Source: Zootoca vivipara (Eukaryota). From it: 64,000 nucleotides of DNA. Under the pieces are notes generated by a model. That model worked only from the letters and a program-made list of their open reading frames with translations. It did not search any database and was not told the DNA's origin. Below, one piece after another: positions 30,410-56,752 of this stretch. The stretch is taken from the NCBI RefSeq assembly GCF_963506605.1, contig NC_083281.1, positions 47,802,001-47,866,000 of the forward strand. Reading direction: 5' to 3'. Within the stretch, counting starts at the first letter, position 1; the number at the start of each line of letters is the position of its first letter. The translations under genes were made by a program, and so were the position numbers.

Positions 30410-31360
30410 TTTCAGGGCTTTGTTGCAGCAGAACCTTTTCTGGGCCAGCAAGTGGAGAGGGAAAGATTGCCAAGGGATTATTTAAAAGCCTAAGCAGCGG
30501 AGGAGGAGGAGGAGCCACTGGGACACTGCACTTCCACGCCTGCCAGATGCCAAATTGGAGAGGAAGTTGCAGGGCTGAGCGGGAGCTGTGTCTGCAGACT
30601 GAGCGTGTGTGGCAGCAGCAGAGGGCGGAGAGAGCGCCTGGGCCACCCAAGCGGCGGCTGTCCCCGGGCAGCGCTGATCCAGATGTGCAGCTGCCAGCTC
30701 AGAGGCGAGGTCCTGGGATGGGAACTGGCAGGAGCTTCCTGTCTGCTGGAGTGGTGGTGCTGAGGGAACGTGGCTCATTAACCCCGAGGATGGAGCTGCT
30801 CTGATACTTGACAAACAGCTGCTTTCTCTTTCTCCGGCTGGGATGCAGAGCCTTGAAATGTGTGCCAAGGAGCAGACAGGACCATGACATTCTGCTTTGT
30901 GTTAGGACAGGCTCTGCCTCTCCTCTCAGGAAGGAAAAATACTCAGGCAGAGTTGGGGACCTAGTTTGCTGGGAGACCCTGTGGAAACGGCTCTCTTTTG
31001 AGTCAAACAGTGGAAGAGGGCAGAGGTCGCTCTTATTTTGCTCTCCTGTGGCCCAAATTCTGTATGCAAAATGCTTGGGCGGGGCCAGAGAGGTTGTGAC
31101 TGATGTAAGAAGAACCCAAAGAGTTGTGGCTGGAAGCTACCTGGGATGGTCTGTTCCAAACACCTGCCAACAGCTGCTGTTGCATTTCCGTAACTAAGTT
31201 GGTCTCTGCAGCACCTGGAGAACTGTGAGGGTTCCCATAATAAGCTTTTGAGAAGCCAAACACTTTCTCTGCCAGCTTTCCCCCCTGCCTTTTTTTCTGT
31301 TGCAAGAGAGAGACAGACCAAGTGACCCTTCCTGGCCTCTCCTCCCCTCTCATGCCCACC
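30410..31360 (+). other. ST3GAL2: ST3GAL2 exon 2, 5'UTR portion (~950 nt)
   Basis: Strong acceptor tcctcctctttctctccag at 30409; no recognisable TE up to the ATG; consistent with the ~1 kb exon-2 UTR I recall for mammalian ST3GAL2. Confidence 0.65.
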
Positions 31361-31690
31361 ATGAAGTTTTCGCTGCGCTTCTGGTTCCTCTCCACGGCTT
31401 TCCTGCTTGTCTTCATCATGTCCCTCCTTTTCACCTACTCCCACCACAGCATTGCCTACCTAGACCCCAGTGGGCTGAACGGCATCCACCGGGTGAAGCT
31501 TGTGCCAGGCTACGCTGGTATGCAGCGCCTCAGCAAGGAGGGGCTCTTTGTGCGGAGCTGCACCTGTCGCAGGTGTGTGGTGGACGTGAGTGACTCAGAG
31601 TGGTTCGACACCCGCTACGACAGTAACATCTCCCCAGTGTGGACCAAAGAGAACATGGACTTGCCGCTGGATGTCCAGAGGTGGTGGATG
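31361..31690 (+). CDS. ST3GAL2: ST3GAL2 coding exon 1 (cytoplasmic tail, TM anchor, stem)
   Basis: cccaccATG; [30 protein letters not shown]...DVQRWWM|gtgagt, 330 nt. Confidence 0.98.
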
Positions 31691-32979
31691 GTGAGTTTTT
31701 TGGGGACCGGGGACCGGGGGAGGGGTTGACATTCCCACTCCTATTACAACCACTTAGGGCAGCAAGACCAGGACAGCCTGCTAAGTCTAAGCACCGTGCA
31801 ACAAAATTCCCAGCCTGCAAGCTGCTTAGTCTGTATCCTGTATCCTGTTAGTGGTTCCCATCAAGCTCTCTGGTACTATTGCTGCTATAATTTACAGTGC
31901 TGTGATTAATCCAGGTGAAATAGCACCTTGCCTAGAAGTGATCACTATATAGCAGGGCTTCTCTCCCCAAAGGCCAGATGGAATGCAGTTCCTGGGTTGT
32001 CTTAGTGAAGGGATGACTAAAAGTCACATTAAAGCCTCTCCCTAGATCTCTGAACTTTTAAGAGTGATTTACCTCCCGGCACCCCTCCACCACCCCAAAA
32101 GTAAAAAAATATATCCTGTTTTTTTGTTGTTGTTTCTTCCTTTTAAGCTCCTCTAATGCACCATCAAATTCTGTCCATTCCACATTTACCAGGGCCATTG
32201 TGTGGCTAGCAGTTGGCTGCCCTTGGGCTCCTTTGGGTGAAAATGTGGGCTACAAAAGGAATAATCAAACTAATAGTGTGTGCTCAAGTAGCAGCTGACC
32301 ATGAGTGCTTTTTGTCAGTTGTACATGGCAACAGGGCTTCCTAGACATGAGGGTTGCTATCTTGCCTGCAAATCTTAAATACCTGTTCTTCAGCATCTGC
32401 AGACAAGGCCTTGCACTACAGTCTTCCAGGGTCAAGCGACAAAGATGGTACAGGCATCATTTTCTTGAAAGCTGCTTTGGTTTGCTTTTCTCCTCTGCAG
32501 GAGTTTCCCCCTTAGCGCAAGGGGAGGAGAAGCAGAAACCTGCAGTCTAAACAGAGCCATGACTCATGCATGTGCAGGTTGCTTGGCTTTTGCCTCCCTC
32601 TGCCGTTTGGGCAGAACCAAGGTTTGTGCCTCTCCAGATGTGTTCTTAGTTTGGGTGTTGCTACTTGGGAAGCAGCAACCAGCTGCAGCCTCTGCCTTGG
32701 ATAGCCTGCTTCTTCCTCTCCTCTCCTCTCCTTTTGGCCATCCAGCAGCACCATCTGTTTGATGAAAGCTGCAGAGCTTTTTGCTGAGTGACTGAGGCTG
32801 GATTTGCTGCAGGGGCTGAACTTCTCACCTTTCTTAAAAGGCCCAGATTGGTGCTCTCATTGTGTAACTGCTAAGAAGAATAAGGAAGCAGCAGGCCAGC
32901 TGTTCCTTGCCTCTTGCCTTGCCATCTATCTCTTCCAGGAATGTTTCCCTCCCCAGCCTAGTGCCATCCTTTTGTCAGA

Positions 32980-33100
32980 CTAGCTCAGTCGGTGGAGCTA
33001 GGGCCATGGGTTTGAGCCCCGCATTGAGCAAAATATTCCTGCATTGCAGGGGGTTGGACTAGAAGATGGCCCTTGTGGTCCCTTCCAGCTCTACAGTTCC
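32980..33100 (+). mobile_element. tRNA-headed SINE fragment with CR1-derived tail
   Basis: tagctcagtcggt A-box-like head, then ttcctgcattgcagggggttggactag...cccttccagctctac. Confidence 0.6.
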
Positions 33101-33849
33101 TACCAGCATGCCTTTGCTGGCTGAGGCTGATGGGAGTCTTAGCCCAAAGCATCTGGGTGGGGGTCAGGAGGCACCAGGCTGGGGTTGGCTGGTTTGCTCC
33201 AGCCAGGAGTAGCTCTCCAGGGTCCTCAGCAGAGAAGGGCTTTTCCTAGTCCTGCTACCTTTTAACTGGGGATTCGGAGGAGCCAGGTGAGGATACCTGG
33301 GGGGAAGGCACCATCCATCCTCTTAGCATCTCTGGCACTGGGAAGAGAAATAGGCCATATGCAAGAACCACTTTCTGCCTTCCTGAGGATATGATGGCTG
33401 GTCCTTGCTGTGTAGTTTGGTCTGTCCCCCTTCAGCCACCTCTGCAGAGGAGAACGTTCTTCTTTTGAATTTAATATTTTGCAGGTAAACAACCAACCAA
33501 ACAGAACAGGGTAACAACACAACCTATTCTTATGTCCTCAAGGGAGTCAAAACCATATCTCACCATTTGTTGTCCTCCAGAGAGATGTCACCAGTCCTGG
33601 GAATAGTCTTTCATTTCTTGTTTTTATCCAGAGTCAATGCTTTGGAGATTTAGTGAAGAACTTTCTTAGGGCCTGCTGCAGGAAAGGCTTGCCCCCAACC
33701 CCCCGCCCCACCCCACCCCACTGTTTCTTGTGTCCAGCAGAGTGTGGACATCTCATGCAGGGCAGAATTCCCAGGACCAAGAAGTACACAGTGCTCTATA
33801 TTCTTCTTTGGCTTCTGTACATTTCTGAATATACAGCATCAGGAAATGC

Positions 33850-34510
33850 CATCTCACACTCTGCTTTTCAGCCTCCCATCTCTTGTAACACATCTCCTCC
33901 ACTCCCCACTTCTTTATTTTTCAGTTTCAAAAAACACGTATAACAAGCAATCCCCATATAACCCCCAAGAAGCATTATGTGAATATACAAAGTAAATGCT
34001 ACTGTCAAACAATAAGCAGGTTAGTACAATAGTTCATGGTTGATTATGGCAGTTAAGGGTCTTCTACTCTGTTTTAACAGATTGTCCCAGAGTAAGGCAT
34101 CGGTAGCTGGTGGTGGGTGGACAACATTGCCCTTTCCATTGTACTAAATTAAACATCCACCTTTCATTCCACATTACAGTTCCTCTGGTCTTTGTCTTCC
34201 TGAGCACTCTAAGATGTTTCTCCATGAGGATTATATCCCATAGTCTATCCCACCATGCCTCCAGAGCTAAGATAGTATGGTAGCTGTTTTCTAATATTGT
34301 CTAATTGTATTTCTAGCTGCAGACATGAAAAAGATTAGTAGTAGGTTCTGAAATAATAAATTCTTATGGTCATCTGTAAACAGATTTAATAAAGCTAGCC
34401 TTGGATCAGGTTGTATCACCTGCCCTGTAATAGAATAAACTTCTTCAAAGACTAATTTCCAAAATAATTGGAAAACAGGTATGCATTCACACCACATAAT
34501 GCAACACACC
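33850..34510 (-). mobile_element. Old L1-clade LINE 3' fragment
   Basis: IMWCEC...FWKLVFEEV...AARNTIRQY resembles an L1 ORF2 C-terminus. Confidence 0.65.
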
Positions 34511-35055
34511 TTGACTCCTGAGGAAAGAGGCTTGTTAATACCCTGGATTGCATCTTGATGTTATATTTGTATGTTGCTCTTTCCCAAATATGCTTGAGCT
34601 AGTGCAGCGGCTCACATCAATTGTAGCCCCATCAAATTTCATTTTGTCAGAATAGCAAAAGCAATACAATATATATCTGAAATTCATAAAAGAAAATCAC
34701 AGAAGCATATTTCATATCAGTGACACAGTGATAACAGCACTGAATACCAGGCCAAACTATCAATCACCTCTGCCTAATCCAATACAATTTGTATCACAAG
34801 AAGCGAATAATATTATTGTAAAGGGATCTCCGCTCCCTCTCAAGTCTTCAGCTCCTAGGATATGTTTGGGGGAAGCTTTGGTGTTAAGCTGGTCTGAGTC
34901 CAGTTTCAGAGCAAGGTGTAAATGTAGACAAAAGGCAGCATGTCCTTCTCCTACTCCCATGTGTGAAGGATTTAGTATACCACACTAACAGCTGGCTGCT
35001 TGGTGCCTGTGGGGTGTTCACTTTGGCCTCATGTTGCCCTCTCCTTTCCCTGCAG

Positions 35056-35249
35056 ATGCTACAGCCACAGTTCAAGTCCCACAACCTGAACGAAGTCTTG
35101 GGGAAGCTCTTCCAGATTGTCCCTGGAGAGAACCCATACAGCTCCCAGAACTCACAACCGTGCCGCCGCTGTGCTGTGGTTGGCAACTCGGGCAACTTGC
35201 AAGGCTCTGGTTATGGCAGGGAAATCAATGGGCATGACTTCATCATGAG
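35056..35249 (+). CDS. ST3GAL2: ST3GAL2 coding exon 2 (start of sialylmotif L)
   Basis: 194 nt, tgcag| and |gtgagt; [30 protein letters not shown]. Confidence 0.98.
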
Positions 35250-36149
35250 GTGAGTGACTGGGAGGGCCAGATCCCTCTGTGTCTTGGGCTGTCTTCTCTC
35301 CATCATTGCTGGGCTGGCTCTTGCATCGGAGAACAGCAGCCCGGCAAACATTGGGGACGAAGAAAGCAGCAGCAGCAGCTGGTGCCACCTACCTCTTCCA
35401 CTCCAGTTTCTCTCCCTGCTGAGGAAGGAGGTTTGACTCCCAGCCCCTCTTGCCTGGCCAAGGGACCATCTGACTACTTGGCGATTCTCTGTTCGCCACC
35501 TTCAGCCACCCCACTAGCTGTCCAAGGAACAGATACCTGTGCTTGCATTTAGTTGCTGCTGCCTGAAAGTTTCCAGAAGCTCTGCCAGCATTTGGGGTCT
35601 GTCACTGGGCAGACATTGCTTTGCAATTTGAAATAGTATGAACGTGTATCTGGATTGGCTGAAACAGGCCTAAAGTGGCTGAAACTTTTTCCCAGAGAAA
35701 GGCCTGGAAAGCTGGCATTTCAACTGGAAGCAAATAAAATAAACATTGATGAACTTGGGCAGCTGCTCTTGAGTCCCCTGAACTGGGTAGTTTTCCCTTG
35801 AATGCATGAGGTGGGGTGACCTATTACTCCGACAGGATTGCCTGCAGTGCAGAGTCAGTTCAGTTCAAGCATAGGCAACCTTGGCTCTCCAGGTGTTTTG
35901 GAACTACAACTCCCATGATCCCTGACCACTGGCCCTGTTAGCTTGGGATCATGGGAGCTGTAGTTACAAAACATCTGGCCAGCCAAGGTTGCCTATGCCT
36001 GGTTCAGGTGTTTGGCTGCAGGTCAATATGGCATTTGGATGGTGTTGTCAAGTGGACACTTGGTTAATCGTATTCGTTCCTCCACCTCTTCTCTCCCACT
36101 TTCCCCCCAACTCCCCGCTCCTTTCATCTCATGGCTTTCTACAATTGCA

Positions 36150-36497
36150 GCGCGGGTGGCGCTGTGGGTTCAACCGCAGAGCCTAGGGCTTGCCGATCAG
36201 AAGGTCGGCGGTTCGAATCCCCGCGACGGGGTGAGCTCCCATTGTTTGGTCCCAGCTCCTGCCAACCTAGCAATTCAAAGCACGTCAAACTGCAAGTAGA
36301 TAAATAGGTACTGCTACAGCGGGAAGGTAAACGGCATTTCCGTGTGCTGCTCTGGTTCGCCCGAAGCAGCTTTGTCATGCTGGCCACATGACCTGGAAGC
36401 TGCACACCGGCTCCCTCGGCCAATAACGCGAGATGAGCGCCGCAACCGCAGAGTCGGTCACGACTGGACCTAATGGTCAGGGGTCCCTTTACCTTTA
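36150..36497 (+). mobile_element. Sauria SINE, preceded by a hAT MITE at ~35867-36001
   Basis: GCGCGGGTGGCGCTGTGGG head to GGGGTCCTTTACCTTT tail. Confidence 0.9.
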
Positions 36498-36676
36498 GGT
36501 AGGGGGTCCTTGTGTTCTTGTACAGCACCTAGCACATATGAGATGCTTTTGCATATAACACGTAAGTGGTGTGGGGAACCAGAGTTCTCATTCTGAATCC
36601 AGCTGACTGTGTCTGCCCTACCACCACAGCACCCCTTTCGGGACCCTTTTTGCGGCTATAAGATCCTTCATCACCT

Positions 36677-36696
36677 TGCTGCCATCTAGTGGCAGC
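36677..36696 (-). promoter_or_regulatory. Candidate CTCF site
   Basis: Minus strand GCTGCCACTAGATGGCAGCA matches the CCASYAGRKGGCRS consensus. Confidence 0.55.
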
Positions 36697-37585
36697 TCTC
36701 TCAAAAGGCAGCTTGAGGTGAAGCATCCTGCAGGGTCCCTGGTGGACAGGGTTGCCAGCTGCCCTTAAAGAGCAGGTGTGGGATCCACATGTTTCTCTGC
36801 CCGCTCTGGAATCACATCCTGGATGGGGCTTGGCTGCCTCCTGTGAAGCAATGCGGCCTCTCCTTTCTCAGTGAAGCAAAACCCACGGGTCTTTCTCCTT
36901 GGTTACTATTATTAGGCCTAATGTTGTGATTTTGCCTAACTTGGCAACTGGTGGGTGATCCAGGACTGAGCTGAAAAACTTTGCTCCCTTCAGTGTTTGT
37001 TGGAGATGGGAGAGACCTAGTTCTGTTGCTGTTTGCATTTGAGGAGAGCCAGAGTCAGAAGTGTGGATGTTTTCATCAGAATTGCCCCTGGTCATCACTT
37101 GTTTGATTTACTCCCATCCGGATGTCAGTACAGGACTCTATTTACAAAAACATCTAGGCACAGGAATAGCATTTTTCCTTGTGCCATCAAAATGTTGAAT
37201 CTGTAGTTGTGGGCGGAGGGGGGGCCAGTTGGTGGTGTGCGTCTTTTCACTGTGCTGTTGTATTGTGGGGGGAATACTGTTTGTATGAGGTACGTTTTAT
37301 CTTTACATTGCAATGAAGTCGAAGCAAAATTCCAAGTATGGTTGATACTTGGCCAATAAATTATTCTATTCTGCAAATAGTTACAAAGGCACTGTGATTC
37401 TTCACTGTATGCTGTTATCATTGCAATGTAAAAGTTGTGCAAGCACCCCCCCCCACCCTCAAAATAATATTTTAGTGTTCAGAGGCTGGATTGAGCTGCC
37501 ACACACACCCTTTTGTAATAATGAAATGCTCCAGACCACAACTTCAGCTAATGCTTCTCCCTGCTCCCCTATTCTTTCCCTGCAG

Positions 37586-37765
37586 GATGAACCAGGCCCC
37601 TACAGTGGGCTTTGAGGCGGATGTTGGGAGTAGGACAACTCATCACTTCATGTACCCAGAAAGTGCCAAGAACCTGCCTGCCAACGTTAGCTTTGTTCTT
37701 GTGCCCTTCAAAGCCCTGGACCTGCTGTGGATGGCAAGCGCCTTGTCGACGGGCCAGATCCGATT
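37586..37765 (+). CDS. ST3GAL2: ST3GAL2 coding exon 3
   Basis: 180 nt; [42 protein letters not shown]...GQIRF; tgcag| and |gtacgt. Confidence 0.97.
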
Positions 37766-38435
37766 GTACGTATCCTGCATTGCAGGGAGTTAAGCTTGGA
37801 TGACCCTTTGGATACCCTCCAATGCCACAATTCCATGATTCTATCCCACCCAGTGAGGAAAAGATGGGCAGCCCTGGCCAACAGGCACCATGTCATTGCC
37901 TGGGGACGAGTAATTCCCATTCCTGTGCCTTCAACCCTTTCTGGACCTTTTCCAAAAGATGGCTGTCTTAGGTAGCATGCTGGTCCCACCCATTATTATT
38001 TTCCAGTGTATGGTTAAATGTTTGAAAGCAAAAAAGTTGCTTCCAGGGTGTAAGCAGAACAGACAGTCCACACTTGAATGTTGTACACAAAATGAGGGAT
38101 GTAACATACATAAAGGTATGCTCTGCTACCTGTATGTGAAAGTTCACGTTTTGTGACAGCCAAGAGTGGCGGTAATGAAGGAAAGAAGAGAATTGTGTTC
38201 TCTCTGTAAAACTCCAGAGCTGCTTGGTTCAATTTCAGGTTTGTCCAGTCCCCAAATTTTCACTGTGTCTGTTGGCCCCTCCATGCCCCCCTCTTCCTTT
38301 AAGAGTTAATATGGGGATGTGACAGAAAGAGGGAAGGGAGGGCAGAGGGGGCAATTGAGCAGAGCATCTTTTTAGCAAGAGGGGGGGCGAGGAGCATCTC
38401 ATTCACGTTATTTCTCCCTTCTGCTTCTCTCATAG

Positions 38436-38481
38436 CACTTATGCGCCCGTGAAGCCTTTCCTTCGGGTGGACAAAGACAAG
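38436..38481 (+). CDS. ST3GAL2: ST3GAL2 coding exon 4 (TYAPVKPFLRVDKDK)
   Basis: 46 nt, catag| and |gtaagt; keeps the frame; absent from the ORF track. Confidence 0.95.
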
Positions 38482-39090
38482 GTAAGTCTGGCCTTCATGG
38501 AGGAGAGGGAAGGGATTCTCTGAAAATATCCATGTTGGCTTCATCTGCATGGGTATTTTCTAAATTCTCATCTCTCTTAAGTTAGCTTGAGAAGCAAGTA
38601 TTTTGTTTTTTCAGGGGTTGGTTGGTTCTACTAAAAATACAAACATACTACAGTCATACCTCGGGTTATGGCCGCTTCAGGTTGCGTGCTTTCGGGTTGC
38701 CTCCCACACGGATCACGTTCGCAACCCGAGCATCCACTGTATATGCATTACTATACACATACACACTCCAGGTTTCCTAAGGCAATCAGATACATTTAAA
38801 AAAATGGAAGTCGCTCTGCAGCACGAAGGGCAACTGAGCATCAAGCAACAGCAATGGGTCCAGGATTACCCCCAAGCTGCTTATGCACTCCTTCAGAGGG
38901 TGTGTAACCCCATCAAGAGCAGGCAACTTCCCAGCCACCCGGTCTAGGGAACCATCCACTAACAGTGCCTCAGCCTTTTCCTCTGGACTGTGTGGACTGA
39001 GATTGAAATACTCAATGGCCATGTGGAGGGGCTTCCCACAGAGAAAGCACTGCCTGTTGTGATGTTGTCTTCTGTGATTTGTGTCCTTAG

Positions 39091-39210
39091 GTTCAAATCT
39101 ACAACCCAGCTTTCTTCAAATACATCCATGACCGATGGACAGAGCACCACGGACGCTACCCTTCCACGGGGATGCTGGTCCTGTTCTTTGCCTTGCACGT
39201 TTGTGATGAG
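39091..39210 (+). CDS. ST3GAL2: ST3GAL2 coding exon 5 (sialylmotif S)
   Basis: 120 nt; [40 protein letters not shown]. Confidence 0.97.
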
Positions 39211-40113
39211 GTGGGTTCTTAAGTAGCTGGAGAGGCTTCCCAGCTTGTAAACAGAGATTTCATGTTGCAGAGGGAGGGCCAGCGCCTGGAATTTGGCAGG
39301 CTCCTCTGGTCTATTTAACAGACTGGATGCATGTGTGTGGGTGTGGGTGGGTGGGTGTGGGTGTGTACGTGTGCCTGTGTGTGTTTTAAAGGGGAGGCAA
39401 GAGAGACAGAATGTAAAAAGGTGGGTCACAGTTCACAATCACTCAGCACAGAGATTCAACACAAAGCAGGACCATGGACAGGTCTGCCAGTTTTACTTAA
39501 TTATACGGTAGTACATTAATTCACACACACACACACGGACATAATAATAAAATATGCTGTATATTGAAAGATAGAAGAGATTATAACCAAACAACCTGAT
39601 GGGGACCAACAATGCTAGGTGTCTTCTATGGCTGTATCCACACTGGGACATCTGTGTGTATGTGGGTTGCTCATTCCATGTGTGCATCTGTGCAACTTCA
39701 TCCACACATGAACGCATTTAAAGTTATGCGTCTAAAATCTGTCTTAGTGTTTCCCATCCACGTTAGTTGACAGTGTTGATGGATAGTATTTGTCTTCCAT
39801 GTTGCAGTCCTCTTCCACCTTATGTTCTGGAAACATGAGGCCCATTGTGGGCATGTGCACAGATAATCTTAAAAAGGAAAAAAACAATTTAATGTTGAAA
39901 TACAAGTTTCCTAATATGCCAGATTTGCACAAAAGAGCAGTGAAAAAAAATGAATGTGCCCATTTGGCTCCAAGCTGGGCAAGTGTGTGGAGCCCCTCCC
40001 ATGAAAGGCCTGCCACTTCCTCTCCTCCCGTTGTTGTTGTTAGAATTTATATACTGCCCTATATCCAGAGGTCTCAGGGCGTTTCACAGAATAAAATCAA
40101 GACATAAAACCAC

Positions 40114-40149
<36 letters not shown>

Positions 40150-40427
40150 AATAACCCCCCCCCAAAAAAACATTTTAAAGGGCATAGGATGTAAATCAGA
40201 TTAACCAAAGGCCTGATTGAAAAGGAACATTTTTTGCCTGGCGCCAAAAGGTGTACAGTATGTATAATGATACGGTGAAGCCAGCTTTGCAAAGTTTGGA
40301 AGCCATTTACACCTACAGTGCCCCCCTGCCACTCCATTGTCTCTTAGCGGGTAATCCCACTGAGTTTCAATTCAGTGGATGTTTCCCTTGCTGACAAGGA
40401 CCCTCTCTTTTCTTTCCCTGGCTATAG

Positions 40428-40601
40428 GTGAACGTTTTTGGGTTTGGGGCAGACAGCCGTGGCAACTGGCACCATTACTGGGAAAACAATCGCTATGCAG
40501 GAGAGTTCCGAAAAACTGGGGTGCATGATGCTGATTTTGAAGCCCATATCCTTGATATTCTGGAGAAGACAAACAAGATTGATGTTTATCGTGGTAACTG
40601 A
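40428..40601 (+). CDS. ST3GAL2: ST3GAL2 last coding exon (motif III HYW, VS motif HDADFE)
   Basis: [60 protein letters not shown]; total CDS 1044 nt = 347 aa. Confidence 0.97.
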
Positions 40602-46323: not shown

Positions 46324-46437
46324 TCACCAAGGGACAGTTTTTCCTTCCCAGTCTAAAAAGGTTCCGTTGTCCTGGGCAGAGAGGCGGGAAAGCACTTGGA
46401 TGATCCCTCTTGTGCTGGAGGCCACACTCAAGACTCC
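46324..46437 (-). CDS. C-factor-like SDR exon 6 (GVLSVASSTRGIIQVLSRLSAQDNGTFLDWEGKTVPW-stop)
   Basis: 114 nt, ttttgttccag| acceptor; family-diagnostic C-terminus NGxFxDWxGxxxPW; absent from the ORF track. Confidence 0.92.
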   Translation of the reverse strand, partial: GVLSVASSTRGIIQVLSRLSAQDNGTFLDWEGKTVPW

Positions 46438-48359
46438 CTGGAACAAAAAAAGCGACATCATGCTGCATTATTAAGTGGCCAAAAGCTGCCATCTGTTCTA
46501 CCACCAGCTCCACACAGGTTCCTGGCATTCGCAGAAGCAAGGCTGGCACCTCCTGGGGATGTGCCTGCTGCAAGAATCTGATTTGACTGACAAAGAAGCC
46601 TTCCTTCAGGAGTGCCAGCCCACCGCCCTGGGCATGCTGGAGCAGACTTGCCAGGCAAAGGATGTGGGGGTGAAGGGCTGCAAATGGGATTTGAGGGGAC
46701 GGGAGCTGAAGTCTGGGATGTGGCACCACACCAGTCTGGGTGGAGGGCATGGAATTATTGAGACTGGTGGAAGGAGGCGCCTTGGGAAATTTGGGTGTGC
46801 CCCCCCCCCCAAAAAATGCAAGCTAAACTTTGCTTCAAGGTATAAACTGAGCCCAATTTCAGCTTCCCTCTGCTTGGGAACTGGTAGGAGGGAGACGCTT
46901 GAAGTAGGCCTTGCTGCACCACTGCTTCTCAGAAAGAAGCTGTGTTTCACCCCTGGCTCTTACAGCTCCTTCCTCTGATACATGAACTTGCCTAGTTGGA
47001 CTGGGAGAGACCCTGCCGTACGTTTCCATGGGGCTGCAGCACAGCCCTGCTCCCCTTGGTCACAATGACTCCCCAGAGCCCTCGCAAAACAGCCCAACTC
47101 CACATGGTTCCCTGCTTGTGTTCCTGGTGGTATAGGAGAAAGTGTCCGACCATTTGGCCATAATGAATAAGTAAAGAAGTTGGAGTTCTTGACTGAAGAT
47201 CCCACAGAAATAGTAGAAAGGCAAGAACTCAGGCCACCGTAGTAATGTATGACAGGGCCCTGTTTTGACAATTCTTCAGCAAGTAGACTTAAGAGTCAAC
47301 GTGTACAGGTAGATCAAATATCAGTTCTTGCCTTTCTACTATTTCTGTGTGTTCCTGGTGGGGCAGAGGAAGAGGGCAGTCGGCAGCCCTTTTGGCTTTG
47401 TTTCATGTGGAAAGGAAATGCCCCACCCACTCCTGGTTCTGGCTCTACCCAGTACCACCCTCTGGCCCCTGACACATGACTCTATGGGAAAGTGGCCCTC
47501 AACAGGCCATCTCCTCCCCCCTCCTACTTGCCTCCTTCCTGAGTCATGGGATGCCTCCACCCTTCCCTGCTTTATGCTGCCTGTGGGTGTTAACCAGATG
47601 CCATTCTGGTTGGGCAGCATTTCTTAAGTCAGTCCGTAGGTGTCAACAGCAACTACAGGCGATGTTAGTGAGCACACCAGGGAAACCAGAAGACCAGCTC
47701 CTTGATTGCATTAATGATGAACCTGAATTTTGCATTAATGATGAACCTGAATTTTTGTCCCAACTCTCACCTCAGCCTCATCCCACGGAGACATTTGCAT
47801 CGTGGAATCTGACCAGCAGGTCCCAAAACGCTGTCGTGGGCGGGTGGGGGGGGACGAAAGGTCCACTCTAAAGGTGCTCAGAGGGCACCGCTGCATGGAA
47901 GCCGTGCAGGCTGCGTTTTCCCCTGCTGCCGTTGAGCTGGATGAGGCTGACCTCATCTGTGACCTCCTGCCAGTGACTCTGCAGTCCAGGCAAGTAAGGA
48001 TGATCACGTGTGGGCGCTGCTCTCACTTATTTAATATTCCATAAGTGCCTCTTTCCAAGCTCCCACAACAACTTAACTGGTCTGTATGTGAAAGCTTGTG
48101 CCTTTTTCATCCCATGGGTTCACAAGGCTTCCCCTGACTCAGGGTTGTAGAATTCACTCCCCTCCCCTTCCTGTGCATCCTCTCTGCGACCTTAGAGTAG
48201 CGAAGTCCAGGAGGGTCTGAGCTCCCTGCAGGCACATCAAAATCCACCCTATATCGTTGCTCAGAAGTGGGCCCTGAGGATTCTTCTTCGGGGGTGGTCA
48301 GGCTGAAATCCACAGCACCATGTCGTCCCCCCCCCATTATCACTTGGGCTGGTGCCTAC

Positions 48360-48470
48360 CTGCTCTACTCCAAGTTGGGTCTTCACTCCTCCAGGGTGGA
48401 TAGAGACACACAGGATCCCATAGGGGCCATACCCAAGAGATTGGCAGCGCATTAGCATGTTCAGAGCTGC
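48360..48470 (-). CDS. C-factor-like SDR exon 5 (AALNMLMRCQSLGYGPYGILCVSIHPGGVKTQLGVEQ)
   Basis: 111 nt, ctgcag| and |gtaggc; AALNM and HPGxVxT motifs. Confidence 0.93.
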
Positions 48471-49264
48471 CTGCAGAGGAAGAAGCACAGTCAATTGGGA
48501 CCTGTTGGTTCAAGGGATGCCTAGCCAAGTGTGAGGCTGCAAGAGGGGGTTACGTTGTTGCCTGCTTTCATGCCCTGGCTGGTTCCAGCCGTCTACAAGC
48601 ATATTGTGGCTCTCAGGCCATGGAGTGCCTATCCCATCAGTGCCTGACAGAACCATCCATGGCCTGGAAGGGTGGTTGGGCAGCTCTGCGGGAGATTTGT
48701 AGTCAAATCCAATAATACATATTGCTGCTGGTTTGCATGTGGAGGGGTTAAGACCATAGAGCTGTATTGCCAATAATCCAACTCAGACCATAGAAACATA
48801 ATTAGTAGAGATGACTCTGTGTGGTGTCATTTCCCCTCCTCTCCAGGAGGGAAGAAGCAAAAGTATTTTCTGTCCTCTCCCCCTCCTCACTCTCACTCTT
48901 TTCAACCAGCCACGAAGGAGGACCTGCCTCTGATCACTCCTGAGGCTGTAAACACATTGTACCTGCCTTTGGTTCTAATGCTGTTGCTGCTAAGGATGAA
49001 TGCTTGACTGTGAGTAAAATATATGTTTTAAACTTCCTTTTCGGTCTGTAGCCACTTTCTTTGATAAACGTGGTAACTGTTATAAGAATTTTAAGAACTT
49101 ACATATATAAAATAAATGTTCCGAAATCTACCAAGCAAACAAACACACACACACACACACACACACATATCACATGTCTGAAGCCACAGAAAAAGTCCTG
49201 AAACCATTTTGTCCCTCCCAAATTGACCTCAAATATTTCTCTGCAAGATCGAAGGAAATGGGAA

Positions 49265-49515
49265 GAAGAAGAAGAGAAGAAGAGTTTAGATTTGATATCC
49301 TGCTTTATCACTACCCGAAGGAGTCTCAAAGCAGCTAACAATCTCCTTTCCCTTCGTCCCCCACAACAGACACCCTGTGAGGTGGGTGGGGCTGAGAGAC
49401 TTCAAAGAAGTGTGACTAGACCAAGGTCACCCAGCAGCTGCATGTGGAGGAGCGGAGACGCGAACCCGCTTCCCCAGATTACGAGTCTACCGCTCTTAAC
49501 CACTACACCACACTC
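49265..49515 (-). mobile_element. Squam-type tRNA-derived SINE
   Basis: Minus strand agtgtggtgtagtggttaagagcggtagac head, CORE-like cacagggtgtctgttgtgggg body, (TTC)n tail. Confidence 0.8.
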
Positions 49516-49539
49516 CCCGTTGTCTCTTTGCTCACAAAT

Positions 49540-49915
49540 CCTGTCTTAAGGGCACATTTAAGATATGAATAGGGTGAGCCTGTGACCTGGATTTAGGTAG
49601 TTATCGTCACAAAAGAATAGCCAGGCTCTCCAGGTAAACCCCTTGAACAACCAGGTATACTCATCAACAGGTTTCCTGCCGGCCCCTTCTCCTATGTATG
49701 ATCTTTCTGGGAGTGGTCTTGAGCTCCAGAGCGGGGAATTTCAAAAGTCTATATAGGAGTTCTCAGTCCCTCCTGCCTCCAGCGTGTGGTTGTGAGCACC
49801 CTGTTGCAACAGTTAATAAAGATCAGGCTTACTAGTGGCTTTGCTTCTCAATATTCTCTGGGTAGCTTCTGTTATTTTCTCCTACCGATAGAGAACCTAC
49901 AAAAGGTCTAGCTTG
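49540..49915 (+). mobile_element. Probable solo LTR (boundaries approximate)
   Basis: TATATA ~49750, AATAAA 49815-49820, LTR-like U3-R-U5 spacing. Confidence 0.55.
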
Positions 49916-49921
49916 TCTAAC

Positions 49922-50940
49922 TATAATGACACCAATATGCAACTCAACAAGGAAAAAACATCTAAACAGGCGTGGCTGCTGGCTACTTCCCTCCGGAGAT
50001 CCCATCCTGCGAACAAATAAAATGTTTGCATAATCATTATCAAAGCCATAACACCTATTGTCCTACTGAAGTCCTCACATAGGAAAACCTGTCAACCTTT
50101 GTACTTACCTGATTGCTCCCTGTAACTTGTTTCTTCCCGCCCTATTCCTGTCATTTGGTAATATTGGGAAAGAAAAACTATAAAAGTCGGGGGAAATCCT
50201 TTGTTCTGGGTTCTTCGCTCCGTCTAGCTACGTGAGAGGGGAACCGCTGTTGCAACAGCTTTTTATTTTGTCTTAGAATAAATCGCCTTGCTTTTTAGGA
50301 AGTCCTGGTGTGGTCTCTGTCATTTCGCTGTCAGTAAGAGCTCCTAATTTGTACCTCTTACTGAGGTTCTTGGACTCCTCCTGGGTCAGAACCCTTGCTT
50401 CTCTGGGTCTTCAATGCCCCCCCCCCCAAATTCCTATAACACAAGCCAGGCAGGAGTTTCGGTTGCCCAGATTCTGGGGGCGAGGAAGGACTGGTGATCC
50501 AGCATGCACCAGGCCATTTGCCAGGAGGAGCCACCAGTCCTCCAGTGATCCCAGGGTCTGGAAATAACTGGAGTTCCAGCGGGGCTAACCAGAGGAAGCA
50601 AAGCTCGATCGGGCCGGCCTTAAACAACCAGTCAAGAGATCCCTGGATCGCCAGGAACAGCGCACGCAGAAGTGAGTATGAGAGAGAAAATGGGGAATTA
50701 AGGAAACCAGGGTAGTGGGCGAACTAACCACAGCAACTAAAAATCTTCTCTATCTTTACTGTCCAGTAACAAAGGGGGAAGATCAGCCTAATGCTTTCAA
50801 TTAAACTGCATAAGATGGGATATAAACTCTGTTCAGCCCTGCACTTTTAAGCACAAGTGGTAAGCTGATCCTTTTGTCTGTTAAACTCCCCCCCCCCCCG
50901 GTGGGTCTGTAGGGGGATAAAATATAGTTAATTATAGTCC
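49922..50940 (+). mobile_element. ERV-like 5' LTR (49922-50441) with a degenerate primer-binding site (PBS) and leader
   Basis: TATAAAA 50179, AATAAA 50277, end CCTATAACA followed by CAAGCCAGGCAGGAG (similar to the tRNA-Arg PBS TGGCGAGCCAGCCAGGAG), donor-like AAGTGAGT ~50670. Confidence 0.6.
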
Positions 50941-51238
50941 CTCATCTACCTAATAAAACCTTTCAAGCTCTTTGCCTTCCATGAGGCTGCTAAAGAAAAC
51001 CCTGTGTGCCCTGAGCAAAAGTAGAACTGATGGATCCCAGGCCCAGGGAACACCCATCTCACCCAGCTCCCAGTTGGCCTGAGAGGACTCTGCCATTCTC
51101 TGCATTTTATATCATTTATTTGCTTTAGCGTTTTGAAATTGTAATTGACCTTAGGCACCTATAAATACATCAAATAAATAAACCTATGTGTCCTCATAGA
51201 CAGTACAGTGTGCCTCAGATTCACCCTGTGCCCCAATC

Positions 51239-51377
51239 NNNNNNNNNNNNNNNNNNNNNNNNNNNNNNNNNNNNNNNNNNNNNNNNNNNNNNNNNNNNNN
51301 NNNNNNNNNNNNNNNNNNNNNNNNNNNNNNNNNNNNNNNNNNNNNNNNNNNNNNNNNNNNNNNNNNNNNNNNNNNNN
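51239..51377. other. Assembly gap (139 N)
   Basis: Run of N in SDR intron 4. Confidence 1.
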
Positions 51378-51427
51378 TACTCCCGGGCTCCTTAGCACGA
51401 GTCCAGCCTCTCCCCCTCCTTTCCCAC

Positions 51428-51586
51428 CTTGCTGCAGCGGTAGCTGACGTCTTGCTTCCACTCCCACCCGTCAACGAGTGAGATGGAGCCATAGCTGCTC
51501 GACATGTTGATCACGGCGGCTTTGCTGCAGCTCATCCCGCTGTGCGTGCTTTTCTGAGCCGCCATTTTGAGCAAAGGCAAGAAGGC
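51428..51586 (-). CDS. C-factor-like SDR exon 4 (AFLPLLK...AAVINMSS...SYRCSK; catalytic Ser and YxxxK)
   Basis: 159 nt, ttacag| and |gtggga. Confidence 0.95.
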
Positions 51587-51825
51587 CTGTAAAGGGAGAG
51601 AGAAGCAGCACCCATCATCCATTGTTGTGCTTCACCCTATAGGCCCCCACCCATCTCATTCTCTCTCCTGCTAAGAAGCCTCAATTCTTTCCTCCATTCT
51701 TTTAAGATTAGCTGGAGACCGGCTTCCTGCCGCTTCCTCTCAGTGGGAAGAGGCCCACAGCTGGAGAACTGGCTTATGGGTAGGACAAGTGGCCTTGCAA
51801 GGGTTTTAACCAACTCTCTCCTCAC

Positions 51826-52013
51826 CTGACACACCAGCATGGGCCCAGTCGTGTTGGTGGCATATACGGACAACATGTTCTGGGCGTTCTCGGAGCTCAG
51901 AGTTGTTTCACAAGCGATGGCGGCATTATTTATGAGCAGGTTGAGACCACAACCTGCCACACGCTCTTCCACTTTCTTGGCAGCTTCCTTGATGCTGTGA
52001 GGATCTGTGACAT
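51826..52013 (-). CDS. C-factor-like SDR exon 3 (DVTDPHSI...GLNLLINNAAI...NTTGPMLVCQ)
   Basis: 188 nt, phase 1 start, tttag| and |gtgagg. Confidence 0.95.
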
Positions 52014-52202
52014 CTAAATCAACAGAGGAATTTAACAAGTTTGGCAGCTGCTGCCACTCTGCCCCTTCCTGTGGCAAAAAGCAAAATATTTCTGTGGTAA
52101 TTCTGCAATTGTGGAGAATCAGGGTAGGTTAAGGAGAGTGGCAAAGGTATACAGGTGCGAACTGAATTCAAATCTCTCTTTGGCCACTGTCTCTTGCCTT
52201 AG

Positions 52203-52575
52203 CAGGTGGCGCTGTGAGGTGGAGGTGTGAGCCTCCTGGGCTTGCTGATTGGAAGGTCGATGGTTTGAATTCCTGCAACCAGGTGAGCTCCCATTGCTCT
52301 GTCCCAGCTCCTGCCAACCTAGCAGTTTGAAAACACACGAGTGCAAGTAGATAAATGGGTACCGCTGCAGCGGGAAGGTAAACGGCGTTACTGTGCACTC
52401 TGGCTTCCGTCACGGTGTTCCGTTGTGCCAGAAGTGGTTTAGACATGCCAGCTGCATGACCCAGAAAGCGTCTGTGGACAAACGCCGGCTCCCTCTGCCT
52501 GAAAGCGAGATGAGCACCTCACCCCATTGTCGCCTTTGACTGGACTTAACCGTCCAGGGGTCCTTTACCTTTTTT
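52203..52575 (+). mobile_element. Sauria SINE
   Basis: GCAGGTGGCGCTGTG head to GGGGTCCTTTACCTTT tail. Confidence 0.88.
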
Positions 52576-52750
52576 TTACCTAACCCTAGCCTACCTCAGA
52601 GCATTGTGAAGATTAAAGATGGGAATTGTTATCTGCTACCTGCGTTCTTTGGAAGAGGTGGAGGAATTAGGAAAGACGAAGAGCAACAACAAATGGGTTG
52701 CCAGTGGAAAGGGCAGTGCAAGACTATCATAGGTCATGGTGGGTACATAC

Positions 52751-52811
52751 CTAGTTGAAGTAGAACAAGAGTTGAGACGTTTGAATACCTGCGAGCCAGT
52801 TCCTTTAATAC
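52751..52811 (-). CDS. C-factor-like SDR exon 2 (VLKELARRYSNVSTLVLLQL)
   Basis: 61 nt, ctccag| and |gtatgt; links exon 1 (phase 0) to exon 3 (phase 1), giving the ...LQLDVTD motif. Confidence 0.9.
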
Positions 52812-53986
52812 CTGGAGAAAGAGAAATCAGTTTGAGAAAACAGGCAAGTTTACATGCTAGTCCCTAAGCAAGCGCTTGCTCCAAAATTCAAAAGCAACTG
52901 GGCTATGGCTTGGGGGGGAGGGGGAGAGATAAATGGAATCCCTACACAGGTGGGGCAAGCACCTGTTATATCAGGCCCAGTTTCAAAGTCACATTTTCTC
53001 CTACCCCCTGCCCCAGCTTCCATAATATGTATATTATTATAATTATTATAATATTTTATTTTATAATAATTTTATGAGTTTTCAATTACAATCCAATAAT
53101 AGCCTCATTATAACAATATCAATTTATAATACAGTTATTAATATCAATTCAAATACTGAATTATATAATTTAGATAAGGCGGCCCCCCCACGTGCTAGAA
53201 TTGATGGCTTGATTATTTGCTTTATTTCTGCATTCCAAAATCTTAATCATTTGCATTACATTCCAGCCATAATAATAATCCCCTATACAACAACTGCAAT
53301 ATTAATAACTTCTATTCGTGTTGACACTTTAAATGATTTATAAAACAACAAGTGAGGAACTCAAACTATATCCTTCCTGTGTGTGGTAATTATTCTGTCT
53401 GTGGTGGTTCTTCCTATCCTTGTAAGATGTTATGTTTTTCTTTCCCCCGGTTGTTGCTGTTATCCATCATGCCTTGGGCGGAGCTGATATCCCATTGTTT
53501 CTTTAAAAAAAAATCTCCATTGCTCTGTCCTGTGCTTCATTGTTTTGCAACTTTAACAACAGATGCAAAAAACACTCTGTCCCAGTAAATAATCTGTTGT
53601 CACCATTATTATTTTTCTCAGCCTGGGGCAAAGAACAGTCTGTTGAACTGCAGATAAACTCAATAAAGAACTTTATCAGTTCCTTGGCAGTTCACACACT
53701 CCTTTCATCCTTCCATCCAACTGAAGATAAATGAGTAATTACACTTCCTATTAAATTAAATTCTAAGTCCTCTTAGCGTTATTCAGTTCACTCCATTAGT
53801 AATAAAGGATGGGGAAGAGTCAGCTCTAAGCTTCCATCATAAACCTTTTGTAAAATAGAGCTTCCCTCCCTTTTTTTTCTTTTTCACACACACAGTTCCG
53901 TTTAATGTTATATTCCATATCTATAATTTGTGATCTAATCTTTTCTAGCACGCGCCTGTACTTTAGTCCAATAAAACTCTACTTAA

Positions 53987-54300
53987 CAGGGCTTGCTGAT
54001 CAGAAGGTCGGCGGTTTGAATCCCCGCGACGGGGTGAGCTCCCGTGCTCTGTCCCAGCTCCTGCCCACCTAGCAGTTCGAAAGCACGTCAAAGTGCAAGT
54101 AGATAAATAGGTACCACTACAGCGGGAAGGTAAACGGCGTTTCCATGTGCTGTTCTGGTTCGCTAGAAGCGGCTTTGTCATGCTGGCCACATGACCTGGA
54201 AGCTGTACGCCGGCTCCCTCGGCCAATAATGCGAGATGAGCGCGCAACCCCAGAGTCGGTCACGACTAGACCTAATGGTCAGGGGTCCCTTTACCTTTTT
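53987..54300 (+). mobile_element. 5'-truncated Sauria SINE
   Basis: agggcttgctgatcagaaggtcggcgg...ggggtccctttacc. Confidence 0.88.
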
Positions 54301-54564
54301 AACAGGAGAACACCTGCTTCTTAATGGCAGTGTTGGTGGATTTTCAACAGACGAAGTGCTTTTGCACTCAGCGCCTCTCTGCTTCCTGCAATCCATGCTA
54401 GAGTGAGAGCCAGGTACCAAGGCAAACTGCGAGTAAAGCCCGTTTCCCCCCCCCCATTCCCTGGGGGGAATCTGCAAGGATAATTACCCTCACTCATCAT
54501 TGTTTTTCCTTTGCCAATGATCTCCCGCTGTCGTGGGTCTGCCTCCATTAAGGCAGACCAGAAC

Positions 54565-54565
<1 letters not shown>

Positions 54566-54616
<51 letters not shown>
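54566..54616. repeat. (ATT)n microsatellite, probably a retroposon tail
   Basis: ~17 ATT units. Confidence 0.95.
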
Positions 54617-54617
<1 letters not shown>

Positions 54618-54799
54618 TTACATTTGTATACTGCCCTTCACCTGCAGATCTCAGGGTGCTTCACAACATAAAAAAATATGAAAGCACAAAATACAATATA
54701 CAATATAAAAGCACAAAATAAAAAGTACAAAACCACCAAACAATAACCCCACCCCTCCCACAAACACATTTAAAAGGGGTTTAAGATGCTAATCAGCTA

Positions 54800-55110
54800 A
54801 AAAGGTAAAGGTAAAGGACCCCTGACAGTTGTCCAGTCGCAGACGACTCTGGGGTTGTGGCGCTCATCTCGCTTTACAGGCCGAGGGAGCCAGCGTTTGT
54901 CCACAGACAGTTTTTCCGGGTCATGTGGCCAGCATGATTAAGTCGCTTCTGGCGCAATGGAACACCAAAACCAGAGTAGCGCACGGAAAAGCTGTTTACC
55001 CTTCCGCCAGAGTGGTACCTATTTATCTACTTGCACTTTTTGGCATGCTCTCGAACTGCTAGGTTGGCAGGAGCCGGGACCAAGCAACGGGAACTCACCA
55101 TGTCGCAGGG
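54800..55110 (-). mobile_element. Sauria SINE
   Basis: aaaggtaaaggtaaaggacccc tail reading on the plus strand, followed by SINE body. Confidence 0.88.
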
Positions 55111-55906
55111 AAAGTTCTGCATGGGGTCACAGGTGGCAGCTGTTTAGTCTGCTCCCTGAACAGCCACTTTCTACTACAAATTTGCAGAGTTTTGGAATGG
55201 AAAGGGACAGTGGCTTTGCTGGTTTAGAAGTGCACCCATCACTGGCTCCACTTTAACTTCTAACTTTTAACCAATACAACACAAAACACTTCAGTACTTA
55301 GCTCAGCCAACACAAAATGCTTTTGAACCAAATGCAGATAAATGCTGTATATATTAATTAACAGAATTAACAGAATTAATTAACAGAATAAACAGTACAA
55401 GCAGTGTAGTCTGGTACAAAATGAATGCAACGCAGGAAAATGGTTATTTGGTATATCTTCAAGAATGCACATGCAACACCCACCCATTGGAAGATTTCAA
55501 AACCATTCCATTCAAAAATGCCCAGAGTTCAGTGGTTAGAGCCACTGGTTTGCATGCAGAAAGTCCCAGGTTCAATTCCCAATGTCATCTCCTGGAAGAG
55601 CTGGAAGAGACTCCCAAGCCTGAAACTCAGGAGAGCCATTACTGCCAGTGTAGACAACACTGGCTCTCTGCCTGCTTGAACCCTGATTTCATTAATTTAC
55701 TCCCCTGAAAGTAATTTACTCTACTGAAGGAGCCTTCTGAAATCTCCTGGCTCTTGGCCCTCCCTGGTGTCAATTGGAGTCAGGTTGGCTCCCACCTAGG
55801 CTTCTCTGTATTCTTACCCAGATACTCAAGGGGAATAATGGATGGATATTTCAGCCAGCAGATTGGCCAATGTCCAACTGTTTCATCCCAATCCTCAGGT
55901 GCTCAC

Positions 55907-56053
55907 CTGTCCTTCGGGTCCATCTGGATGCCGGCAGGTGGCAAAGATGAGCTGAGGTGGATATGGCAGCTGGAGAAATTGCTCCACCAAACCCAGGCCA
56001 ATCCCCCGGTCGCTTCCTGTCAACAACATGCTCTGAATTCTGAAATCTTCCAT
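55907..56053 (-). CDS. C-factor-like SDR exon 1 (MEDFRIQSMLLTGSDRGIGLGLVEQFLQLPYPPQLIFATCRHPDGPEGQ)
   Basis: gacaacATGG start, TGxxxGxG Rossmann motif, FATCR, donor gtgagc; the six exons sum to 780 nt = 259 aa plus stop. Confidence 0.95.
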
Positions 56054-56424
56054 GTTGTCTGTCCGTCTGTCTGTGTGCCTCTCTCTCCTCTGACTGGAGG
56101 AACCTGGGTGGAGTGGAGATATAAGAGACACTGCCCATCTTCAGCTGATATTAATGGTTATGCAAGTTTGCAAAATGTAAATTAAGTTGTCACAGCACCA
56201 GAGTAATCACACACGAGCAGCTTTAATTTCAGCAACAAGGAACTATTTAAAATGATGCATAACCTCAATGTGTCAAGTTCAGGTGTGACCTGAATGATGT
56301 TGAGACATTTGAAAAATAGGTCTGATCACACCATCTTCCCTGAAAAGCATTAGCAGTGGGTGTTTGATTATGATGTTGACGATGACTTGATCAGTTTGGA
56401 GAGCTCTTGTTGCAATTCATAGAA

Positions 56425-56554
56425 CAGGCATCCCCAAACTGTGGCCCTCCAGATGTTTTGGCCTACAACTCCCATGAGCTAACAGGACCAGTGGTCAGGG
56501 ATGATGGGAATTGTAGTCCAAAACATCCGGAGGGCCTAAGTTTGGGGATGCCTG
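56425..56554. mobile_element. hAT-type MITE
   Basis: CAGGCATCCCCAAAC...GTTTGGGGATGCCTG with TSD TCATAGAA/TCATAGCA. Confidence 0.85.
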
Positions 56555-56752
56555 TCATAGCATCATAGAATTGGAAGGGATCCTAAGGGTCATCTAGTCC
56601 AAACCCCTACAATGTCGGAATCTCAACTATAGTATCTATGACAGATGGCCATCCAATCTCTGCTTAAAAACATCCAAGGAAGGCGAGTCCACGACCTCAC
56701 AAGTGAGTCTGTCCCACTGTCAAACAGCTCTTACTGTCAGAAAGTGCTTCCT

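Follow-up and report, generated by a model that had tools for sequence, protein, structure and literature searches.

A sniffer/C-factor short-chain dehydrogenase/reductase of Zootoca vivipara belongs to a lizard–bird branch with a substrate pocket predicted to be changed

What does a lizard do with a short-chain dehydrogenase/reductase (SDR) whose family has no human member? The question is raised by a minus-strand gene of the sniffer/C-factor SDR family in a 64,000-nucleotide stretch of the Zootoca vivipara genome (G000:C6:47802001-47866000, hereafter the window; coordinates are window positions unless C6 is stated). A preliminary description had taken it for an orphan, uncharacterised reptile carbonyl or lipid oxidoreductase. 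We find that the window SDR is a real, expressed and constrained gene, and that its product is probably a cytosolic NADPH carbonyl reductase, restricted to certain tissues and shifted in its substrate range, lipophilic or fatty aldehydes or ketones being its likely substrates. What is new here is the lizard–bird branch to which it belongs, as a member of a family with a published vertebrate structure and published basic chemistry.

The six exons (Table 1) comprise 780 nt, i.e. 259 codons and a TGA stop, and lie where the preliminary description had placed them; the introns are all GT–AG (5/5), with phases 0, 1, 0, 0 and 0, and an N stretch (51239-51377) falls within intron 4, clear of every exon. 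The model was already public, since the protein is identical (0/259 differences) to XP_034975490.1 (P0189), an automatic annotation named 'C-signal [Zootoca vivipara]'. Alternative exon boundaries, giving 253–256 amino acids, were ruled out: both the splice junctions and the annotated protein fit the 259-residue form.

We compared the locus with eight sequencing runs whose tissues are unlabelled. In contigs of run X1 each of the five predicted junctions was in place, at a depth of 234–369 as compared to about 4–20 for the listed intronic contigs; the join from an alternative exon 1 donor had a depth of 23 versus 369 for the main join. The intron-3 junction was also found in X4 (another study) and in X14 (another organism). 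X1, X4 and X14 were only presumed to be RNA; the spliced joins show that they are. In X7, exons 3 and 4 were covered at a depth of 950–1850, with loose ends matching the adjoining exons, and X11 gave no coverage of this exon 3–4 stretch, on which X4 and X14 were compared too. By contrast, three raw-read RNA runs labelled with this species, sampled at about 7.5 million reads apiece (6% of each run), all showed an exon depth of essentially nil. The gene is thus expressed, but not everywhere. Most raw RNA reads at the locus are drawn by three SINE-like (short interspersed nuclear element-like) repeats in introns 1–2 and by a palindromic element 5' of the gene, which could pass for expression.

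The protein is a classical SDR: it has a Rossmann fold with the glycine motif TGSDRGIG, and the catalytic tetrad Asn123, Ser162, Tyr181 and Lys185 with its YxxxK signature (YRCSK); these motifs, together with ATCR, NNAA and the C-terminal DWEGKTVPW, are all present. Pfam adh_short matches the full protein with an E-value of 2.4e-27. Searched with phmmer against solved structures, the exact window protein matched best 3WXB (E 1.6e-84), Drosophila Sniffer (E 1.9e-48) and a worm homologue, among others. We used the AlphaFold model of the Podarcis orthologue (93% identical to the window SDR; pLDDT 92.6) for structure comparison by Foldseek. This model superimposed on 3WXB, described in the PDB as 'NADPH bound carbonyl reductase from chicken fatty liver', with a template-modelling (TM) score of 0.95 at 1.5 Å, and on Sniffer (1SNY) with a TM score of 0.91. 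Structure 3WXB is reportedly the subject of a 2015 paper by Fukuda et al. (PMID 26206323) on an NAD(P)H carbonyl reductase of chicken fatty liver. The family is therefore not an orphan one, as a crystallised NADPH carbonyl reductase and an expression study of five chicken paralogues, NADB-LER1-5 (PMC7136477), both belong to it. Membership in the sniffer/C-factor family is further indicated by the nesting of the protein among C-factor-like proteins and by a six-exon pattern under which 13/13 lizard copies splice to open frames. The tryptophan of the substrate loop, HPGW(V), is replaced by Gly213; its absence marks a sub-branch, and the window SDR stays in the family. There is no close human match, the best listed human-type SDR among the PDB matches of the orthologue having an E-value of 3e-6, and the window SDR is thus not the orthologue of a characterised mammalian SDR.

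Phylogeny placed the window SDR in an orthogroup that is not confined to lizards. In a 62-row tree it fell inside a lizard clade of 12 rows (100/99), whose branching broadly followed lizard phylogeny; intact orthologues occur in geckos, skinks, lacertids, iguanians and one anguid. A profile of this clade plus an ostrich sequence retrieved a bird clade of 253-residue proteins, and in a further tree, built from 66 rows picked by hand, nine lizard and 14 bird rows formed one clade (99/96) apart from NADB-LER1, so that the window SDR is not a NADB-LER1 orthologue; 3WXB is on neither tree. The chicken orthologue is LOC101751691 (XP_015134703), whose best match in the lizard genome is exon 4 of the window SDR and which we judge not to be one of NADB-LER1-5. 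We rejected a link between this gene, automatically named 'D-beta-hydroxybutyrate dehydrogenase-like' (PMC12111442), and BDH1L, the red-carotenoid enzyme, because the chicken protein nests among C-factor genes. Fish bdh1a is a BDH1 homologue, as is the SDR of red carotenoid colour (PMC8416024).

Among the snake and turtle proteins placed on the trees, none fell in the lizard–bird orthogroup. This may reflect loss or an annotation gap, the latter because Anolis and Varanus were likewise not seen there. As for mammals, the claim that human has no counterpart stands: c-factor gene counts are two in tilapia, two in gar and zero in human (PMC8073704, Table S27). The claimed absence of a placental orthologue is uncontradicted. 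The family as a whole is not wholly absent from placentals, because an intact homologue was found in a manatee: one placental, P0242 (KAM9607128.1), 'C-signal-like [Trichechus inunguis]', appeared among the 20 named of 150 listed 50%-cluster representatives. This protein of 261 residues, 46% identical to the window SDR and with all catalytic motifs intact, is encoded on a 79.6-Mb contig. Known from one automatic record, it has a long branch inside the amniote family but outside the lizard–bird orthogroup. It suggests a late, patchy loss of the C-factor family in mammals.

The orthogroup differs from the rest of the family around the predicted substrate pocket. We aligned 193 proteins, namely the stored proteins of 200–330 amino acids plus the 13 lizard copies (longer fused models were left out), of which 12 are orthologues from lizards, 52 are orthologues from birds (so assigned by identity) and 129 are other family members. 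The catalytic tetrad is kept in 12/12 lizard rows. Trp occupies position 213 in 122 of the 129 other rows and in none of the 64 orthogroup rows, the PGW motif reading PGG in the window SDR. Position 164 is Tyr in 10/12 lizard rows, Leu in 51/52 bird rows and Gly or Ala in 115/129 others, and Asp178 is found in 63/64 orthogroup rows. In the bird orthologues (P0213, 52 rows), much of the NNAG motif is lost and, in most, a Pro-rich loop replaces PGWVxT; Ser, Tyr and Lys are kept. With the catalytic Ser (+2) and the PGW motif as anchors, mapping onto human CBR1 equates Gly213 with Trp229 and Tyr164 with Met141. Substrates of CBR1 stack against Trp229, across the pocket from a wall formed by Met141 (PMC2741203). 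In the lizard enzyme the aromatic wall would thus have moved across the pocket, and we infer from these residues a substrate range different from that of 3WXB.

The cofactor was assessed by the published SDR rule whereby NADP(H) preference goes with a basic residue in the glycine motif and/or after beta-2 and with no acidic beta-2 end (PMC2792337). The preliminary description had read an NADP(H) preference from the arginines, and the lizard residues (Arg16, Cys40, Arg41, His42) agree with it: Arg16 is found in 8/9 and Arg41 in 9/10 lizard rows with a residue there, and position 42 is His, not Asp, in 7/10 rows, leaving no acidic residue at the beta-2 end. By this rule the lizard enzyme is predicted to be of the NADP(H) type, with the caveat of position 15, which is Asp in 9/10 lizard and 52/52 bird rows and Asn in 127/128 others; two excluded snake paralogues also carry Asp there. 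The bird orthologues mostly have Gly16, Leu41 and Asp42 (Arg41 in 2/52), and by the same rule are likely not of the NADP(H) type, pointing to a possible cofactor switch or altered function. The window SDR might itself be an NAD(H)-preferring or dual-cofactor dehydrogenase oxidising a hydroxylated lipid, steroid or retinoid, in an orthogroup that moved away from NADPH, completely in birds and to some extent in lizards. Asp15, the bird residues, the automatic naming of several bird orthologues as RDH/HSD17B6-like, and the behaviour of CsgA (NAD+ only) and Sniffer (both cofactors) in cardiolipin oxidation (PMC4579348) are in line with this idea. We nevertheless think it unlikely, as both arginines are kept in lizards, His at 42 leaves beta-2 with no acidic end, and the automatic names reflect best hits, not tests.

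For the carbonyl reductase that we favour, the reaction would follow established SDR chemistry. NADPH would bind first, its 2'-phosphate held by Arg16 and Arg41; Ser162 and Tyr181 would polarise the carbonyl, Lys185 and Asn123 would support the proton relay through the tyrosine, and hydride transfer would yield the alcohol. Gly213 would open one wall of the pocket while Tyr164 would fill the opposite wall, a change expected to weaken stacking on flat para-quinones and to favour a bulkier or more polar substrate. Differences between CBR1 and CBR3 at Trp229/Pro230 and Met141/Gln142 provide a precedent for such a specificity shift (PMC2741203), and Sniffer reduces 4-oxonon-2-enal (cited in PMC4579348). 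Sniffer, the closest assayed invertebrate relative, also oxidises cardiolipin in vitro, which would suit a (phospholipase-C-like) oxidase of the 2'-OH of cardiolipin or phosphatidylglycerol, as reported for CsgA and Sniffer (PMC4579348). Such an activity is very improbable for the window SDR, which has no N-terminal extension or presequence and no membrane segment (highest 19-residue hydropathy 1.13) with which to reach the inner mitochondrial membrane, and whose closest vertebrate structure is that of a carbonyl reductase.

Because of the analogy with the chicken paralogues, the most likely setting would be carbonyl or lipid handling in liver, kidney or gut. Indeed, NADB-LER1-5 are oestrogen-induced genes of liver, kidney and duodenum (PMC7136477), and a chicken c-factor-like protein is abundant in the caecum (PMC8614574). 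The chicken orthologue itself ranks near the top of the unnamed genes that formaldehyde induces in embryo liver (PMC12111442). The skin, gland or pigment role entertained at first has found no supporting evidence. An enzyme dedicated to skin, femoral-gland or pigment chemistry could account for the tissue-restricted expression (nil in the three raw runs, high contig depth elsewhere) and for a conserved, reshaped pocket; it is nonetheless improbable, given that liver, kidney and gut express the chicken paralogues and embryo liver the chicken orthologue, and that the red-carotenoid SDR is not a C-factor gene.

Several points weigh against an NADPH carbonyl reductase. Asp15, beside the predicted 2'-phosphate site, could weaken NADPH binding. 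The pocket geometry is deduced from motifs, not coordinates. Function may differ between lizards and birds, because the birds are without both arginines and the PGWVxT loop, and the chicken formaldehyde result may then not transfer. No assay of any member of the lizard–bird orthogroup was found in the literature (subscription papers not covered). Finally, over 76 codons, counting only listed differences away from contig ends, the window SDR differed from X7 by 5 synonymous and 10 non-synonymous changes, a ratio of non-synonymous to synonymous change (pN/pS) of 0.55 that was not significant (p 0.21).

This last comparison, the replacement of two family residues (the conserved Trp and Asn15), and the lack of a snake or turtle orthologue among the matches placed on the trees could be taken as signs of a decaying redundant duplicate or of a catalytically dead cofactor-binding protein. 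Such a fate is hardly credible: the gene is expressed and spliced, the tetrad is complete in every lizard row, and against X14 there were 8 synonymous and 6 non-synonymous differences (pN/pS 0.21, p 0.004). The intact orthologues from geckos to iguanians are a stronger argument against neutral decay than the two pN/pS comparisons.

A more specific history is conceivable, although we hold it with considerable doubt: a single-copy orthogroup since the lizard–bird ancestor, devoted to one substrate made in the body (a steroid, retinoid, bile or gland lipid) as part of a pathway lost in humans, would have moved its aromatic wall in lizards and gone from NADPH to NAD(H), perhaps with a reversed direction, in birds. 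If so, the lizard and bird orthologues would be a natural pair for the study of a cofactor switch.

The presumption that the gene is one of a paralogue array proved right. An exon-3 search of the genome gave 13 places, all on C6, hence at least 13 copies, two of them directly beyond the window. All 13 splice to open frames of 253–267 amino acids under the six-exon phase pattern of the window SDR, which is confirmed by junctions for that gene and was imposed on the other 12. The latter are 44–60% identical to the window SDR, and their exon 2 is 52 nt long (+9 nt in the window SDR). Paralogue A3, frameshifted on the impression of tblastn, splices to an open 257-residue frame, and a frameshift was ruled out. 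Paralogues A2, C1 and C2 are without both arginines (TGSNQ/TGSNS; ATSLD/ATTLD), and the lizard array may for that reason include copies of the NAD(H) type. Within the six-copy array, D2 and D3 arose by a very recent duplication (branch lengths 0.03 and 0.006), and an extra exon-1 copy with no further exons found lies between C1 and C2, a partial duplication.

Table 1. Features of the window SDR gene, its surroundings and its paralogues (window positions unless C6 is stated)
Feature	Coordinates	Strand	Remarks
Exon 1 (coding part, aa 1-49)	55907..56053	-	ATG, beta-1, TGSDRGIG, beta-2 ATCR; exon 1-2 junction depth 369 in X1
Minor alternative exon 1 extension	55818..55906	-	89 nt, alternative GT donor; reads into in-frame stop
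Exon 2	52751..52811	-	61 nt; junctions in X1 contigs
Exon 3	51826..52013	-	188 nt; Asp70, NNAA motif, Asn123; adh_short E 2.9e-7
Exon 4	51428..51586	-	159 nt; catalytic Ser162, clade-specific Tyr164 and Asp178, YRCSK
Exon 5	48360..48470	-	111 nt; HPGGVKT, Gly213 at the family's Trp position
Exon 6 (coding part)	46324..46437	-	DWEGKTVPW, TGA stop
Candidate polyadenylation signal AATAAA	46198..46203	-	~120 nt 3' of stop; use predicted
SINE-like repeats, introns 1-2	52200-52585, 53988-54300, 54795-55111		~310 bp each
Palindromic element	56424-56555		~130 bp, 5' of the gene
Open frame	57238-57993	-	251 codons; no Pfam match
GT29 sialyltransferase	31355..40574	+	exons at 35062-40574; tail-to-tail with SDR; context only
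Two paralogues just beyond the window	C6 47.867-47.873 and 47.881-47.889 Mb	+	exon-3 search
Remaining paralogues	C6 45.25 (1), 56.28-56.30 (2), 56.60-56.72 (6), 80.8 Mb (1)		exon-3 search; six-copy array at 56.60-56.72 Mb
Paralogue A2	C6:47867416-47872913		
Paralogue C1	C6:56282257-56288145		
Paralogue C2	C6:56291367-56303175		
Extra exon-1 copy	G000:C6:56290136-56290363		between C1 and C2

A motif scan of the 3 kb 5' of the gene found no full ERE, ARE, HNF1 or HNF4 site and no proximal TATA. The open frame in Table 1 resembles the Cys/His end of a LINE (long interspersed nuclear element) ORF2. The GT29 neighbour is presumably ST3GAL2, judging by the human N-terminus and gene order; an atlas search with its first exon yielded no gene name. 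Upstream of it lies a fucokinase-like gene, on one flank of the SDR cluster, and on the opposite flank are LRR, BTB and RhoGEF-PH genes, presumably LRRC36, KCTD19 and PLEKHG4 by human gene order. Matches to alanyl-tRNA synthetase on C6 are 24 Mb from the cluster. If these names hold, the cluster of three SDR genes (C6 47.80-47.95 Mb) is probably located where two blocks of human 16q22 adjoin, and it may mark a rearrangement breakpoint because the fucokinase–sialyltransferase and LRR–BTB–RhoGEF blocks would be about 3 Mb apart in human.

Sauropsids have an expanded SDR family without a human member, which leaves some of their carbonyl and lipid metabolism without a model in human. The window SDR is a conserved, expressed outlier of this family, whose lizard and bird orthologues differ at cofactor-determining residues. 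The family fold and basic chemistry are already known, and the window SDR alone opens no long-standing question; within the literature searched, the undescribed part is the lizard–bird orthogroup, in which the pocket is predicted to have changed and the cofactor seems to have diverged. As judged by title, the literature on C-factor-like or C-signal-like genes contained no lizard study (subscription papers not covered).

How, then, does the window SDR compare with its known relatives? It shares with 3WXB the family, the fold, the 259-residue size, YRCSK, both arginines and the C-terminal Trp. The two are paralogues, 52% identical in the structural alignment, and where 3WXB has Asn15, Ala164 and Trp213 the window SDR has Asp, Tyr and Gly, along with a three-residue insertion that 3WXB is without. 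NADB-LER1-5, found by BLAST only in birds and lower vertebrates (PMC7136477), are of the same family and likewise clustered; NADB-LER1 is 56–57% identical to the window SDR but sits in a separate bird clade.

Drosophila Sniffer has the same fold and motifs; it is 38% identical, keeps PGW and is a single-copy neuroprotective gene, whereas the window SDR has at least 12 paralogues in the lizard. Myxococcus xanthus CsgA, of a related SDR group, is the source of the automatic name. The preliminary description was right to place the gene in the sniffer/C-factor family, but the CsgA label misleads as a guide to the cofactor: CsgA, which is associated with membranes, uses NAD+ only (PMC4579348). Nothing here implies a signalling role for the window SDR, and the related bacterial NCBIfam models score 114 of 251 bits on it, far under the cut-off. 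Human CBR1 and CBR3, finally, are NADPH carbonyl reductases as the window SDR is predicted to be, but they are of another SDR family and are absent from the 38 PDB sequences matched at E-values up to 1e-5.

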